A program made the translations under genes and the position numbers. Positions 11,367 to 64,000 of a stretch of DNA of 64,000 bases are shown one piece after another (within the stretch, counting starts at the first letter, position 1; each line of letters starts with the position of its first letter). The stretch lies in assembly GCA_021372475.1 (NCBI GenBank), contig JAJFUJ010000139.1, positions 9,535 to 73,534 on the forward strand, given 5' to 3'. The stretch comes from Chloroflexota bacterium (GTDB lineage: Bacteria; Chloroflexota; Anaerolineae; UBA1429). The notes beneath the pieces were generated by a model. The model did no database searches. It was not told the origin of the DNA and saw only the letters and a program-made list of their open reading frames with translations.

Positions 11367-12715
11367 GATGTGCCGTATCCGCCGCCGTCATCTTCCGGCG
11401 CATGCAGGTCGGCAAATAACGTAAGTTTCGGATTAAAGTATAGCGAAACAGTGCCCGAAGCCCCGTTCCGATGCTTGGCCACAATTAAATCGGCGATATT
11501 GGTTCTATCGGTCGGCTCATTGAAGGTATCCTCACGATAGATAAAAATGACAATGTCGGCATCCTGCTCAATCGAGCCGCTTTCGCGGAGGTCCGAAAGT
11601 ACTGGTTTTTTATCCGGACGGTTCTCAACAGCGCGCGAAAGCTGCGACAGGGCGACTACCGGCACATTCAACTCTCGGGCGAGCGATTTTAACGAGCGCG
11701 AGATATATGAAATCTCCTGCACCCGATTCTCGCTGCGCCTGTCGCCGGCCTGCATCAATTGCAGGTAGTCGATGATAATGAGGTCCAGGTTGAACTCAGC
11801 TGCCAGGCGGCGCGACTTGCTGCGGATTTCCATCGGGGTGAGCGATGCAGAGTCATCGATAAAGATCTGCGCTTGCGAGAGCTCCCCGCTAACGCGGGTA
11901 AACTCATCCCATCGGTCTAGGATATGCCCGTTTCGCAAGTCCTTGGAATCGATCCCTGAAGATGCCGAGATCATGCGCTGCACTAACTGCTCGCTGGACA
12001 TTTCGAGCGTAAAAATCGCCACTACGGCATTGTGCCGCAGCGATGCGTTGCAGGCAATGGTAGTTGCCAGGCTGCTTTTACCCACCGCAGGCCGCGCTGC
12101 GATGATAATCAGATCGGAGCGCTGCATGCCCCCCAGCAGCTTGTCTAAATCAGCAAACCCGGTCGGCACACCCGAAGTCTGGTCAGGGTGCAGCGCTAGG
12201 TTCTCCACTTTGTCATAATACGGACCGATTATCTCTGCAATAGGGGTTAACTCGCGCACGGACCTGCGCTGGGCAACCTCGAATATTATGCTCTCGGCTT
12301 TATCTACGACTTCATCAACATCCTCACGGTCTTCATAGGCCAGGGCAGCAATCTCGCCGGCTGCATCGATCAGCCTCCGCATAACGCGGGTGCGTTCAAC
12401 GATATGCCCGTAATACTCCACGTTAACCGAGGTAGGCACCATATTGACCAGCGAGGTCAGGTATGGAGCGCCGCCAACGATCTCTAGTTTGTTGTTTCGC
12501 TCCAGTTCATCGATTACAGTCACAAGGTCAGCGGGGACGCGTCGTTCATGCAGGTCAACAATGGCTTGAAAGATAATCTGATGGGTTTCACGGTAGAAAT
12601 CCTGAGGTTGCAAAAAGGTGCTCACCCTGATGATTGCGTCAGGATCTATCAGCAGGCTGCCGAGTACCGATTGCTCCGCTTCGATATTTTGAGGGGGCAG
12701 GCGATCTTGAGCCAT
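11363..12715 (-). CDS. dnaB: Replicative DNA helicase DnaB
   Basis: N-terminal [22 protein letters not shown]. RecA-like domain with GKSSLA Walker A and the H2–H4 motifs. 450 aa. Confidence 0.95.
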
Positions 12716-25078: not shown

Positions 25079-25306
25079 GAGGGTGTTGAAAAAGAGGTTC
25101 TTTCCTTATACTTGCCCACTGGGAAACAGGAAGCGTCATTCCGGCGCAGGCCGGAATCCAGCATTGATCTGATATATAGTGTAATATATCATATCATAAA
25201 ACGAATAAAAGCAAGACTCGGATGGGTTCCTGCCTGCGCGGGAATGATCTGCGAGTTCGCAACTCTGTCTTTCAGACACTGCGGTATCTCCTATTGGATA
25301 CTTTTT
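25079..25306 (+). mobile_element. Miniature inverted-repeat element, copy 1 (about 228 bp, non-coding)
   Basis: Perfect 16–17 bp terminal inverted repeats (C)GAGGGTGTTGAAAAAG ... CTTTTTCAACACCCTC(G). Internal palindrome CATTCCGGCGCAGGCCGGAATC. Roughly 85–90% identical to the copies at 46328-46555 (reverse orientation) and 62811-63198. Confidence 0.85.
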
Positions 25307-25494
25307 CAACACCCTCGCTGTTTTTTGCCTTGATAGCATTTGATATATAATGGCGTAGTGTAATAATAGAAAAGTGTAATCCCGTTGCACGATGCCTGAA
25401 AGCGGGAGATAACCTTTCTGCCTCAGCAAGCTAACGGCTTTGCCACTGTTAGCTAAATGCTGAGAGCAAACCCATAGGAAGGAGGCAATACCCC

Positions 25495-46327: not shown

Positions 46328-46555
46328 GAGGGTGTGGAAAAAGTATCCCAATGGAGACCCCCCGAGTATCTGAAATGACAGGGTTGCGAACTCGCATAGC
46401 ATTCCCACGCAAACAGGAATCCATCCGAGTCTTGTTATTATATGATATACCCCACTATATATCAGATTGATACTGGATTCAGGCCTGCGCCGGAATGACG
46501 CTTCCTGTTTCCTAATGGGCAAGTATAAGAACAGACCTCCTTTTTCAATGCCCTC
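46328..46555 (-). mobile_element. Miniature inverted-repeat element, copy 3 (reverse orientation)
   Basis: TIRs GAGGGTGTGGAAAAAG ... CTTTTTCAATGCCCTC. Flanked by GTAATC / GTAACC (a possible 6-bp target-site duplication with 1 mismatch). Confidence 0.8.
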
Positions 46556-46841
46556 GTAACCAACGGTTGACAAACCCAGGGTTCCTATTATTATATAGTT
46601 ATAAGGCGTTGATGAGGACAAGTAACTCTGCTTGCTTATTCAGCGAGCCGCCGTTGATGCAAGGGCGGCTAACCAAGTAGAGCGAATTCCACCTCGGAGC
46701 CGGGCACGATGAGTGCTCCCGGGAGCTTCCGTTACCGAGCATAATACGAGGCCGGCGTGTAAACCCGGCGCACTTAGGTGGCACCACGAAAGCAAACGCT
46801 TCTCGTCCTAACGAGAAGCGTTTTTGCGTTATGAAAGGAGC

Positions 46842-48445: not shown

Positions 48446-48518
48446 GCGCCCGTACCTCAATGGATAGAGGACCGGACTACGAATCCGTCTGTTGGGCGTT
48501 CGACCCGCCCCGGGCGCA
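48446..48518 (+). tRNA. tRNA-Arg(ACG)
   Basis: Acceptor GCGCCCG/CGGGCGC, D-loop TCAATGGATAGAG, anticodon loop CTACGAA, T-loop GCGTTCGACCCGCC. Confidence 0.8.
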
Positions 48519-48636
48519 CAGATATTGCAAAAGCCGATAGTGGTATCAAGATTCCTACTATTATCGGCTTTAGATTAGCAAATGACCGCTTTATGATGCA
48601 ATAGCGAATGCTGTTTCTTTTTAGCAGGTTCTCTGC

Positions 48637-49746
48637 TTATGTTAGTTCGACAGCCCCGAATGGATCAAGTAACTCTATCTTTCTCAAGTAGAGTCCTACC
48701 AGCCACAATTTTATGGGAGTTCGTTCTGCAAGGCGTTGGTAAACATCACATATCAACGCGCTGTTAGGCCGGCATCCGCTAACCCAAAGGCGCATTCCTA
48801 CAATAAAATCACGCACCCATTCCTTACCCCCCGCAATACTCGAGTAGGTATCCTCACATTGCAAAAAGCCCGGGACAATGTCTCCGTTCTCCAGCGGGTG
48901 GCTGGGCAGGGATACGGCCCTTTTCTCCTTGCCTACGCACCAAAGCAGCCGTTCAATAAAACGGAAAGCCTTGGGTGCGCAAAGCCACGAATCATGTATG
49001 AAACTCTGAAACCATGACCAATCCGGACATATCTCAGACAGGCGTCTCTCGATTTGTTGAACCTCTGGGACTTGCAGCTCCGCAAAATATGGATCATAGA
49101 ATCTAGGATTGCCATAGTGCCCCTGCTCGTTTCCGCCGCCGCACTGCGTGTCGCCCAAGAACTGATCGCGACAATAGAGGTTCCTGTGATCGTCATCCCA
49201 AACGAGCGACTTGATCCACCAGCGCTGCCGGTGGACTATCCTGCGAAGTAAAAGCTCCTTGAGCTCTGACCGCTCCCCGAGCACTTCCCATAGAGCTGCA
49301 CATACCTGCTGCCAGTTGATATCCGCATTGCCGCGCATGGAGAGTTCAAGAGCCGCCTGTCGAGGTACAGCCCCTGCGAGCCAGGCGTCCAGACAGAAGA
49401 CATAATCTAGCATGCGTTCTTTCCGCTCTCTACTCGCGGTATAGCAGCCATGCACGAACGTTTGTGGAGTTTGTTTACCAATAGCATCCAGAACATCCAG
49501 ATACGGGGAAGGGAACGCCCAGTGCGGACAGAAAGGAGGGAAATTGATTGATCTTTCCACGATATCCTGTGCCCAGCGAGGTACAGGTTCCAGGCGCTTT
49601 TCCTGCTCGAAGAGGCACCGTAGGGCTTTATCGCATTGCAATTCCGGACAACGATCCCAACCTTGATCGTAAGGTGTATACGCCCAGCATCGGCTGGAAA
49701 TGCTGTCCAGATAAGCCTCTCTGAACCATGGCATCTTTTCAGTCAT
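48637..49746 (-). CDS. Hypothetical Trp/Cys-rich protein (orphan; sole ORF of a tRNA-Arg-flanked islet)
   Basis: 369 aa with about 18 Trp (about 5%) and about 14 Cys. No recognisable motif. Flanked by AT-rich sequence. Confidence 0.5.
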   Translation of the reverse strand: MTEKMPWFREAYLDSISSRCWAYTPYDQGWDRCPELQCDKALRCLFEQEKRLEPVPRWAQDIVERSINFPPFCPHWAFPSPYLDVLDAIGKQTPQTFVHGCYTASRERKERMLDYVFCLDAWLAGAVPRQAALELSMRGNADINWQQVCAALWEVLGERSELKELLLRRIVHRQRWWIKSLVWDDDHRNLYCRDQFLGDTQCGGGNEQGHYGNPRFYDPYFAELQVPEVQQIERRLSEICPDWSWFQSFIHDSWLCAPKAFRFIERLLWCVGKEKRAVSLPSHPLENGDIVPGFLQCEDTYSSIAGGKEWVRDFIVGMRLWVSGCRPNSALICDVYQRLAERTPIKLWLVGLYLRKIELLDPFGAVELT

Positions 49747-49825: not shown

Positions 49826-49870
49826 ACTACGAATCCGCCTATTGGGCGTTCGACCCGCCCCGGGCGCACA
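49826..49870 (+). repeat. Direct repeat of the 3' 45 nt of tRNA-Arg(ACG) (att-like)
   Basis: ACTACGAATCCGcCTaTTGGGCGTTCGACCCGCCCCGGGCGCACA matches tRNA positions 48476-48520 at 43 of 45 nt. Confidence 0.85.
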
Positions 49871-50095
49871 GTAGCCTAAATCCGATTGACGGACACTTGT
49901 TCCGTTAGTCGGATTTTCGTTCTCAATAGACAGATTTACTTTCTCCCTACTAACGGACTCCCTCACAAAGCTTGCCTGAATATTGCCGTAGTTTTGCCTA
50001 AAACGACTTTCAGGAGACCGCTACTTGGCAGCCGCGCTAGTTGGAGTAAAATCATACATACTAATCCAGCATTCATTTTCCACCGAAGGCGTATA

Positions 50096-52272: not shown

Positions 52273-52319
52273 CATACAGCGCTGCTGGTGATAGACTGCA
52301 GAAAAGTGAGGATCCGGAA

Positions 52320-52546
52320 TAGTATCCAGCACACAGCGTTCAGAGAGCTTCTACCTGGCTGCAATAGAAGCCGCCAAAAGGCTGGGAAATGGGCCGGTGA
52401 ACTGCTGAGGTGATAAGCCTCGGCCGGGATGATACTCGTTATCACATATTGAGGGAAGAACGATCGGCATAAATCGTTCTTAATCAGGGTGGCACCGCGA
52501 GATAACCTCTCGTCCCTGTTATACACAACAGGGCGGGAGGTTTTTA
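52320..52546 (+). promoter_or_regulatory. T-box riboswitch leader for trpS
   Basis: Conserved T-box sequence AATCAGGGTGGCACCGCGAG (52482-52501). Terminator hairpin CCTCTCGTCCCTGTT...AACAGGGCGGGAGG plus TTTTTATTT (52506-52549). Candidate UGG specifier in ...GAAAUGGG.... Confidence 0.7.
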
Positions 52547-61650: not shown

Positions 61651-62724
61651 TTATTCAAGTATATGTTGTAAAGTTAGGCGAATTACCTCACCTACCTGGC
61701 GTGTTGTGGCTGTGCCGCCGAGATCCGGGGTAAGTGTGGCGCCCTGCTCAGTGACCAGCTCAATCGCTTTCAAAATGTTAGCCGCGGTCTCAACCTGTCC
61801 CAAATGCTCAAGCATCATGGCTCCTGCCCATATAGCGGCAATTGGGTTGGCGATCCCCTTGCCTGCAATATCCGGAGCCGAGCCATGAACCGGCTCGAAA
61901 AGAGAAGGATAGCGCCTGGTTGGGTTTATGTTAGCGCTGGGCGGAATGCCAAGGCTGCCCTGTAGCGCACCGCCAAGGTCTGTCAGGATATCGCCGAAGA
62001 GATTCGATGCCACAACAACATCCAGCGATTCAGGGGCCGTGATAAACTTTGCCGCAAGAGCATCTACATGATATTGACGGCAGTTAACCGTTGGATATTC
62101 TCGGCTTAGCTGCAAAAATACCTCATCCCAAAACACCATGCTGTACTGAAGCGCATTCGATTTTGTCGCGCTGACCAGCTCGTGCCGCGGACGGCGCAAA
62201 GCTAACTCAAAGGCATAACGCAATACACGTTCTACGCCAGCCCGCGTGAAAACCGCAGTTTGAACGGCTACTTCCTCCCCAGTGCCGCGGTGCACGCGAC
62301 CGCCCACACCGCTGTATTCGCCCTCGGTATTTTCACGGATGCAGACAAAGTCGATAGCTTCGCTACCTTTGCGCAGCGGACCAGGAATGCCCTTGAGCAA
62401 CTTGACCGGGCGAAGGTTGATATACTGGTCGAACTGCTGCCGAATCGGCAGTAACAAACCCCACAAAGAGATATGATCCGGCACTGTCGGATAGCCGACC
62501 GCGCCAAAGAAAATAGCCTCGTAATCAGCTAGGATTGTCAAACCATCCGCGGGCATCATTATCCCGTGCTTGAGGTAATAATCACATCCCCATGGGAAGC
62601 TTTGGTATTTTAGGGAGAATCCGCCATGCAACTGGCTGGCAAGGTTGAGCACCTGAACAGCTTCATTGATTGTCTCGATGCCGATCCCATCACCAGGGAC
62701 CAACGCGATGCGATACTGGGTCAT
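61651..62724 (-). CDS. Isocitrate/isopropylmalate dehydrogenase-family enzyme (tartrate/D-malate dehydrogenase-like)
   Basis: YRIALVPGDGIGIE N-terminus and NLFGDILTDLGGALQGSLGI. Start placed at ATG 62724 with a GAGGTGG Shine-Dalgarno; the listed TTG start is at 62754. Confidence 0.8.
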   Translation of the reverse strand: MTQYRIALVPGDGIGIETINEAVQVLNLASQLHGGFSLKYQSFPWGCDYYLKHGIMMPADGLTILADYEAIFFGAVGYPTVPDHISLWGLLLPIRQQFDQYINLRPVKLLKGIPGPLRKGSEAIDFVCIRENTEGEYSGVGGRVHRGTGEEVAVQTAVFTRAGVERVLRYAFELALRRPRHELVSATKSNALQYSMVFWDEVFLQLSREYPTVNCRQYHVDALAAKFITAPESLDVVVASNLFGDILTDLGGALQGSLGIPPSANINPTRRYPSLFEPVHGSAPDIAGKGIANPIAAIWAGAMMLEHLGQVETAANILKAIELVTEQGATLTPDLGGTATTRQVGEVIRLTLQHILE

Positions 62725-62810
62725 CAGCCACCTCTGGGGAAGTTCTAGCGTCAACCGCTATCGAGCGCTTTCCAATGTGCCACAAGCTCAGGCGAATGTC
62801 AAGGCCGTTG

Positions 62811-63198
62811 AGGGTGTTGAAAAAGAGGTTCTGTCCTTATACTTGCCCACTGGGAACAGGAAGCGTCAGGGGCTGTCCGAAAAGTAACAATTTTCCTTTT
62901 TAGACAACTGATTGTAGGGCATACTTGCCAAAATAACGCGGAAAATGATAGTTGCGTGGAAGTTTACCTTCCAATAATAACGAAACTGAGTACATAAGTG
63001 GGAATAGGCTTTAGGGCTATCTGCTTTTTGGACAGCCCCTCCAGTATTAATCTGACATATAATGGAACATATCATATAATAACAGTAATAAAAGCAAGAC
63101 TCAAATGGATCCCTGCTTGCGCGGGAATGCTATGCGAGTTCAAGTTGGTCTTTTCAGACACTATGGTGTCTCCAACTGGATACTTTTTCCACACCCTC
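62811..63198 (+). mobile_element. Miniature inverted-repeat element, copy 2, carrying a nested 170-bp secondary inverted-repeat element (62870-63039)
   Basis: Outer TIRs GAGGGTGTTGAAAAAG ... CTTTTTCCACACCCTC. Perfect 7-bp direct repeat GGCCGTT at 62804-62810 and 63199-63205. The inner element has its own TIRs GGGGCTGTCCGAAAAG / CTTTTTGGACAGCCCC. Confidence 0.85.
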
Positions 63199-63285
63199 GG
63201 CCGTTGACACCTTCCGGGGTGGTTATATAATAGGAGACGAAAGACCTTGGAGAAATGTGTTCATGGAGGGATAGTCTAGAATAGC

Positions 63286-64000
63286 AATGGGTTGTAATCT
63301 GAACGATATGGCCCGTTTTATCGATGAAGCCACTCGCCGTTATCAGCTACTGGCAGCGGCCTCGGTGAATTATAACGATGAAGAACACCCCATCCCTGCT
63401 CGCGCATTAACCCCAAACCTGGAGAAGGCATGGCTGCGAGCTGCCGACATTTTTAACCGAGGTGAGGTTGTTAGCAGTATTGTAACCGGCTGGAACCGCG
63501 GCGGATTATTGGTCCGTTGGCAGGAATTGCAGGGCTTTGTGCCTGCCTCACAGCTCCGTGACATAACGGTTTTCGAATGCGACGAACCTCGTGCCGAAGT
63601 GCTTGCCGGCTGGGTTGGCAAAGAACTAGCCCTTAAGATAATCGAATTGGATAAGGAACGCAATCGGTTGGTCTTTTCTGAACGAGCCACCTCTTGGGGT
63701 CCGCATGATGGTGAATTACTTTTATCACAGATAAAGCCTGGTGAAACGCGCAGCGGGCAGGTCAGCAACTTGTGCGATTTTGGCGCTTTCATCGATTTGG
63801 GCGGTATTGACGGCTTAGTTCATCTCTCTGAGCTTTCGTGGCGGAGGATTACTCACCCGCGTGAACTTTTAGCAATCGGTCAGCAAGTACAGGTTTATGT
63901 CATCGATGTTGATCGCGCCCATCATCGCGTTGCCTTGAGCCTCAAACGCCTGCATCCCAATCCCTGGTCAATCGTGGATACAAAATACGCAGTTGGCCAG
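63286..64000 (+). CDS. S1 RNA-binding-domain protein (S1-like; 5' partial, continues beyond the window)
   Basis: Open frame-1 reading frame to the window end, not in the ORF track. Two S1 modules are visible (GEVVSSIVTGWNRGGLLVRW; GQVSNLCDFGAFIDLGGIDGLVHLSELSW). Confidence 0.7.

Follow-up and report, generated by a model that had tools for sequence, protein, structure and literature searches.

The Outer Element and Its Three Copies

The window, by which we mean the whole 64,000-nucleotide (64-kb) stretch of DNA that was analyzed, comes from a Chloroflexota metagenome-assembled genome (MAG). Upstream of a gene for an S1-domain protein lies a non-coding composite element of 389 bp (62810–63198, + strand), hereafter copy 2 of the outer MITE. 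It is bounded by 16-nt inverted repeats that are 94% complementary, GAGGGTGTTGAAAAAG on the left (62810–62825, + strand) and GAGGGTGTGGAAAAAG, read on the − strand, on the right (63183–63198). The heptamer GGCCGTT flanks it on both sides, and the right-hand heptamer (63199–63205) overlaps the −35 hexamer of the S1-domain gene. An earlier note on this DNA had placed that heptamer correctly, but its positions for the left heptamer (62804–62810) and for the start of the element (62811) are to be read as 62803–62809 and 62810, respectively.

Two short forms of the element lie elsewhere in the window: copy 1 (25079–25316, + strand, 238 bp), with the palindrome ATTCCGGCGCAGGCCGGAAT at 25138–25157, and copy 3 (46328–46555, − strand, 228 bp), with its palindrome at 46478–46495 and the flanks GTAATC and GTAACC. 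Compared segment by segment, the three copies are 83–98% identical, and all of them have the terminal repeat of the family, GAGGGTGTKGAAAAAG. When the window was scanned for this repeat, allowing up to three mismatches, eight matches were found versus 0.29 expected; six are element ends, and the remaining two, at 12310 and 58350, are unrelated. The outer element has the properties of a MITE: lengths of 228–389 bp, 16-bp terminal repeats, short ORFs only, several dispersed copies (three in 64 kb), and both insertion polymorphism and a target-site duplication for copies 2 and 3, as described below. It also contains a hairpin module, TCATTCCSGCGCAGGCMGGAAYCCA, that is present twice in inverted orientation (25136–25162 and 25219–25243 in the window) and resembles the dRS3 repeats of Neisseria.

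Empty Sites and Target-Site Duplications

Contigs of a related strain, contained in metagenome assembly GCA_040961035.1 and 94–95% identical to the window at the DNA level, were used for comparison. One of them (L001) spans the site of copy 2, where its sequence, ...GAATGTCAAGGCCGTTGACACC..., contains GGCCGTT only once and the element is missing; therefore, the duplication made by copy 2 is genuine, and the identical heptamers pointed out in the earlier note are what they were taken for. The extent of the duplication is ambiguous, at 7–9 bp, because GA follows both heptamers. Another contig (L229) spans the site of copy 3 and reads ...CTACGTAATCAACGG..., again with the element absent, where the window has GTAATC, the element and GTAACC. 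This duplication is either 6 bp with one later change or 7 bp by an alternative parse. The presence of empty sites for copies 2 and 3 in a strain that is ≈95% identical also agrees with the recent transposition that had been proposed for copy 2. No terminal repeat of this kind was found in the three related-strain contigs (L001, L228 and L229).

Copy 1 lacks a target-site duplication. In L228, homology to the window begins immediately past the right end of this copy (25079–25316 compared with L228:662–745), and the rpsF promoter has a gene on its left that differs from the one in the window. Copy 1 therefore marks a synteny breakpoint relative to the related strain, and this position accounts for the missing duplication. 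It also suggests that a rearrangement took place at the MITE or was mediated by it.

A metagenome scan for the outer right end returned mostly chance matches. The sole real relative (L366:1335–1483) is bounded by the outer-type ends GAGGGTGTTGAATAAG and CTTTTTCAACACCCTC and flanked by a duplication of 8 bp without mismatch, TGCTATAA. The duplications of outer-type elements thus range from 6 to 8 bp (6 bp for copy 3, 7 bp for copy 2 and 8 bp for L366). These sequence comparisons show that the outer element is mobile, and they support a recent transposition.

The target of copy 2 is itself a small hairpin, TGTCAA-GGCCG-TTGACA, with a folding energy of −4.2 kcal/mol and a z-score of −1.85 (12 of 200 shuffled sequences folded equally well). 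The duplicated heptamer corresponds to the loop of this hairpin plus 2 nt, which may bear a weak resemblance to the loop-duplication branch of the published model (PMC5678879). Folding of the copy 3 target gave no convincing hairpin.

Promoter Context and Neighboring Features

All three outer copies end 5–11 bp upstream of −35-like hexamers (25317–25365, 46556–46600 and 63199–63231). The sigma-70-like promoter of the S1-domain gene (63204–63231, + strand), TTGACA-16-TATAAT, scores 12/12 and starts 5 bp past copy 2. Copy 3 precedes a TTGACA upstream of the serS T-box leader, and copy 1 precedes TTGCCT...TATAAT upstream of rpsF–rpsR. At the empty sites, the insertion-free DNA has the promoters in intact form, that of the S1-domain gene being unchanged in L001. 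The proximity could reflect a target preference, or the sites could merely be tolerant of insertion. The outer copies thus adjoin promoters of translation-related genes, and since they end only 5–11 bp from the −35 boxes, they may change the upstream promoter context.

A promoter-like sequence, CTGACA-17-TATAAT (11/12), is found at 63052–63080 in the AT-rich center of the outer MITE, facing the S1-domain gene, and the element might therefore carry an outward-reading promoter. Other features of the window include T-box leaders upstream of serS (46600–46813) and trpS (52300–52520), with Rfam scores of 100.9 and 118.2 bits, respectively. The 3′ 46 nt of a tRNA-Arg(ACG) gene (48446–48521) are repeated 1.35 kb downstream (49826–49871) with 96% identity, and the two copies bracket an ORF of 369 aa (48637–49746, − strand) that has no Pfam match. 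In this arrangement, the two copies resemble attL and attR of an integrated element that is either very small or decayed.

The position of every copy just upstream of a promoter, the stability of the predicted folds (z = −5.3 for the inner element, −9.0 for copy 1) and the origin of the sequence from a MAG could all be understood if the locus encoded a structured RNA, served as a regulatory hairpin or had been chimerically assembled, instead of being mobile DNA. We consider this very improbable. Any long inverted repeat folds well; Rfam had nothing relevant in 62700–63300 at E-values up to 10, and, at the gathering threshold, none of its models matched the elements of 15 related loci. The junctions coincide precisely with the terminal repeats, unlike those of an assembly error, and presence/absence polymorphism with target duplications shows transposition.

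The Nested Inner Element

Inside copy 2, in place of the outer palindrome, is a second inverted-repeat element (62869–63039, + strand) of 171 bp, or 173 bp (62868–63040) if the flanking A/T is counted. The insert starts with GGGGCTGTCCGAAAAG and finishes with CTTTTTGGACAGCCCC. Its left terminal repeat (62869–62884, + strand) is identical to that of a Bernardetia IS1182 element at 15 of 16 positions, and its right terminal repeat (63024–63039), GGGGCTGTCCAAAAAG on the − strand, matches the left end of the L192 IS described below at 16 of 16. The two inverted repeats are 16 nt long with one G:T mismatch, or 17 nt including the flanking A/T. The insert has no target-site duplication of its own, its flanks sharing at most one base. 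A hairpin at the right end is clearer than the candidate at the left end, where only a weak match to an IS-like left-end hairpin was found.

The inner repeats agree with the ends of IS1182-family elements at 15–16 of 16 positions, which places them in that family. The reference ends include those of plasmid-borne ISs annotated as IS1182 family, namely the Bernardetia IS (GAGGCTGTCCGAAAAG), ISMsp1 (GAGGCTGTCTCAAAAG), ISBce1 (GAGGTTGTCCCAAAAG) and ISBf3 (GAGGTTGTGTCAAAAC), and the inner-type IS end can be summarized by the motif GGGGCTGTCCRAAAAG. A scan of viral contigs yielded a 1758-bp IS (L192/L198) whose left terminal repeat is the same as the inner right repeat, with 16 bases identical. The 543-aa product of this IS, in which Pfam recognizes DUF772 and DDE_Tnp_1_6, scored 486 bits on the NCBIfam model transpos_IS1182 (NF033551; cut-off 270). 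The viral contigs also yielded L115, a deletion derivative of 602 bp whose repeats are those of the L192 IS and whose transposase is truncated. Proteobacterial IS1182 members have more divergent ends and 4-bp duplications, and the duplications of the IS1182 members examined were either 0 or 4 bp. Since the inner ends match those of transposase-encoding IS1182 ISs, the inner element is an IS1182-type MITE, which would draw its transposase from such an IS; no IS1182 transposase or homologue was found within the 64-kb window. Literature searches with the repeat strings returned only matches to human primers.

The nesting proposed in the earlier note is well supported: the second element is bounded exactly by 16-bp repeats that equal IS1182-family ends, and about 100 other small elements have the same repeats. 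Two other parts of that proposal need qualification. Support for a relationship between the outer and inner elements is confined to their terminal repeats, which agree at 11 of 16 positions; each of the two repeats also conforms to the IS1182-type template GRGGNTGTNNNAAAAG. The template itself matched the window seven times versus 0.02 expected, and all matches were at the ends of outer or inner elements. As to further copies of the inner segment, for which the note had suggested a search, no second copy of its interior was found in the window, the 101 genome loci described below or 25 metagenome loci. As regards the several copies expected of a MITE, the window holds a single one of the inner element.

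An alternative parentage in the IS1595 family (IS1016 group) was considered and dropped. Ends of this group start with GGGGCTG, as the inner element does, and it makes 7–9-bp duplications; in ISApl4, where the direct repeats are 8 bp long, the terminal repeat is GGGGCTGTACTAGA (PMC12561309), the first 9–10 bases of which resemble the inner repeat, and the 7-bp duplication of copy 2 would fit the group. However, the likeness does not extend past base 10, whereas the agreement with IS1182 ends is much closer, at 15–16 of 16 positions, and it is the inner element, without any duplication, that starts with GGGGCTG. The 102 loci with such elements gave no IS1595-type transposase motif, and L115 has a truncated IS1182 transposase between the same repeats. 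We therefore see hardly any chance of an IS1595 origin.

Replacement of a Palindrome

In an alignment of the three outer copies, copies 1 and 3 read GCGTCA-TTCCGGCGCAGGCC(G/T)GAA-TCCAG at the position where copy 2 has GCGTCA, the 171-bp insert and TCCAG. The earlier note had likewise put the insert where copies 1 and 3 have their palindrome, with a length of 170 bp. The palindrome of 18–20 bp is missing from copy 2 and has been replaced exactly by the insert, the comparison being with the paralogous copies 1 and 3 rather than with an orthologous unoccupied site. In the copy 1 sequence, the palindrome folds into an 8-bp stem closed by a loop of 4 nt, with an energy of −9.2 kcal/mol and a z-score of −3.2.

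The insertion departs from the canonical mode that had been assumed for it, in that there is no duplication and the target palindrome has been deleted. These are the features of stem-loop replacement: a palindromic target, loss of the palindrome and absence of a duplication. New insertions of IS1272, a member of the IS1182 family, replaced palindromes of 22–30 bp without duplication, and cases from databases involved palindromes of 21–85 bp; the mode was named "cut-paste-and-cut" or stem-loop-replacing transposition (PMC5678879). TnSha1/IS1272 always inserts in hairpins, deleting part of them (PMC4923244). The absent duplication and the lost palindrome at the present locus fit this signature, with a palindrome that, at 18–20 bp, is at or just under the lower limit of the 21–85-bp target range of IS1272.

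The difference between the long and short forms might also have arisen without nesting, if the long form were ancestral and the palindrome a deletion or excision scar, or if the segment had been swapped by recombination or template switching between hairpin repeats. Only a single long copy is known, the insert lacks a target duplication, and the related strain is without the whole composite. Against this stands the hairpin module itself. The inverted sister of the palindrome survives in all three outer copies, including copy 2, where it is intact (63107–63130, GCATTCCCGCGCAAGCAGGGATCC on the − strand); the palindrome is therefore an original module of the outer element. The palindrome also has no similarity to the inner repeats and, therefore, is not a footprint of the inner element. 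Furthermore, the boundaries of the insert are precisely those of 16-bp repeats that are the same as IS1182 ends, and loss of a hairpin without duplication is a documented outcome for the IS1182 family. An origin of the composite without nesting is thus improbable in our estimation.

IS1182-Type Small Elements in Other Genomes

One genome per species was scanned with the pattern GCTGTCCRAAAAG-N(125–155)-CTTTTYGGACAGC, giving 101 loci in Bacteroidota, Balneolaceae, Ignavibacteria, Verrucomicrobia, Anaerolineaceae and others, with unrelated elements of 150–180 bp. At least one of the loci (L053) is a coding coincidence. Several of the scanned genomes carry many such elements, and one Anaerolineaceae locus (L030) has exactly the repeat pair of the inner element, including its G/A asymmetry. 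None of the 101 interiors is similar to the 171-bp insert in the window, and sequence conservation among the elements stops at G-R-G-GCTGTCC. What the elements share is a class of terminal repeat, and they do not make up one family. There was no full-length IS among the 101 loci, long repeat pairs being due to neighboring MITEs or to chance.

The 102 copies of IS1182-type MITEs are without target duplications. Their flanks are mutually complementary over at least 5 bp in 11 of 102 cases, versus 0.77 expected from permuted pairs, which is what residual hairpin arms would give.

Some further properties of these elements were recorded. A few consist of two IS1182-type repeats alone, forming a hairpin of ≈35 bp (L096:2656–2690, L046:3270–3328 and L072:2457–2486), and tandem duplicated ends are also present among elements of this type, recalling the duplicated-left-end form IS1272L (PMC5678879). 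The motif GTCAT[TCA][CT][CTG] is enriched about 10-fold in the 102 MITEs (4.2 per kb, compared with 0.44 per kb in the flanks), and 33 of the 102 have GTCAT near one end and ATGAC near the other.

In viral contigs, the inner-type repeat mostly gave coding coincidences, GAGGCTGTCCAAAAAG encoding EAVQK in phage genes, and the outer repeat matched only by chance or in phage genes. A metagenome scan for the internal block of the outer element had no matches. A 677-bp element on a JGI metagenome contig (L352:3365–4041) has ends CAGGGTGTGGAAAAAGTATCC and a remnant of a transposase C-terminus; it is probably a eukaryotic Tc1/mariner-type element whose match to the outer repeat is coincidental.

A Model for the Composite Element

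The composite is probably explained by an outer MITE family and an IS1182-type MITE nested in it through stem-loop replacement. According to this model, a MITE family of 228–238 bp has inserted recently in promoter-proximal intergenic DNA, making 6–7-bp duplications. The 171-bp IS1182-type MITE would have entered an outer element, either ahead of the move of copy 2 to its present site or following it, by the structure-dependent mode of IS1272, in which a DDE transposase, here supplied in trans, would recognize a DNA hairpin or cruciform and join the element at the base of the stem. Such an insertion would remove the hairpin without making a target duplication; in this case, the hairpin would have been the outer MITE's own 18–20-bp palindrome.

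Which enzyme mobilizes the outer family is a separate matter. Its repeat fits GRGGNTGTNNNAAAAG and agrees with real IS1182 ends at 10–12 of 16 positions, IS5-family ends matching about equally well. The outer and inner elements might thus have been mobilized by different families, the outer one deriving from the IS5 superfamily or another source and the likeness of the repeats reflecting a distant kinship between IS5 and IS1182. Outer-type duplications of 6, 7 and 8 bp differ from those of IS1182-type MITEs, which have none, and of proteobacterial IS1182 members, which have 4 bp; the agreement with IS1182 ends is only 10–12/16, compared with 9/12 for the end of the IS5-family element ISPg4, GAGACTGTTGCA; and no IS bearing the outer terminal repeat was found in the viral-contig and metagenome scans. 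On the other hand, the outer repeat fits all the fixed positions of GRGGNTGTNNNAAAAG, a template that is otherwise absent from the window. Target duplications in the IS1182 family are reported as variable, with a range of 0–60 bp. The target of copy 2 is a small hairpin whose loop was duplicated, and the model of PMC5678879 predicts duplication of the loop or of the whole stem–loop. Separate parents are, on balance, unlikely, although they have to be reckoned with, and the enzyme behind the outer family would more likely be IS1182-like than IS5-like.

A broader proposal is more tentative, and we hold it to be possible rather than probable: IS1182-type non-autonomous elements may form a barely described, cross-phylum superfamily of hairpin-seeking elements whose own hairpins serve as landing pads, so that they nest in one another. 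The present locus might then show two outcomes expected from the structure-dependent transposition model, which is itself still hypothetical: loop duplication, in the 7-bp duplication of copy 2, and stem–loop replacement, by the inner element. If so, these elements of less than 200 bp would be natural minimal substrates for tests of the mechanism.

IS1182-type ends bound small elements in at least five phyla, and these elements are without duplications and tend to be located in palindromes. MITE-finding programs that require a target-site duplication would miss them. IS1182 goes unmentioned in a 2024 review of MITEs in prokaryotes, and the class has been little noticed in the literature searched. 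Stem–loop replacement is a rarely documented mode of insertion, and the composite would be a natural case of it outside the staphylococci, in a distant phylum, by an element without a transposase, with self-nesting through a MITE's own hairpin.

Comparison with Known Systems

In its kind, the composite belongs with what is already known: the nearest precedents are IS1272/TnSha1 for the mechanism and MITEPye1 for a MITE attributed to IS1182-family elements, and nested MITEs are commonplace.

Like the inner element, IS1272/TnSha1 (Wan et al. 2017, PMC5678879; Furi et al. 2016, PMC4923244) has 16-bp repeats and targets hairpins without sequence specificity, deleting the hairpin and making no duplication. 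In contrast to these staphylococcal elements, the inner element is only 171 bp long, has no transposase, resides in a Chloroflexota MAG and had its target hairpin within another MITE. Its repeat is of the subgroup found in Bacteroidota and Bacillus (GRGGCTGTCC.AAAAG), whereas the ends of IS1182 proper are of the form ...GGGGCTGACCCAAAAG; the comparison with IS1272 concerns the mode of insertion and not the repeat sequence.

MITEPye1 of Paracoccus yeei (PMC11578231) is also small, non-coding and intergenic, with IS1182-like repeats and a long stem–loop. It differs in phylum and repeat sequence, and has 18-bp repeats and 4-bp direct repeats, whereas the inner element makes no duplication and the outer element one of 6–8 bp. 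In the IS1016 group of the IS1595 family (ISApl4, PMC12561309), ends begin with GGGGCTGT and the 7–9-bp duplications are of the size made by the outer element; however, the rest of the repeat differs, and the element here that starts with GGGGCTG is the one that makes no duplication.

The annotated IS1182 ISs (Bernardetia, ISMsp1, ISBce1, ISBf3 and L192) have ends that match the inner element at 15–16 of 16 positions and the outer element at 10–12 of 16. As in the element described here, an additional copy of the repeat lies inward of their right end, where it gives rise to an end hairpin. The ISs are 1.7–1.9 kb in length and encode a transposase of ≈540 aa (DUF772 and DDE_Tnp_1_6), whereas the elements in the window have kept only the ends.
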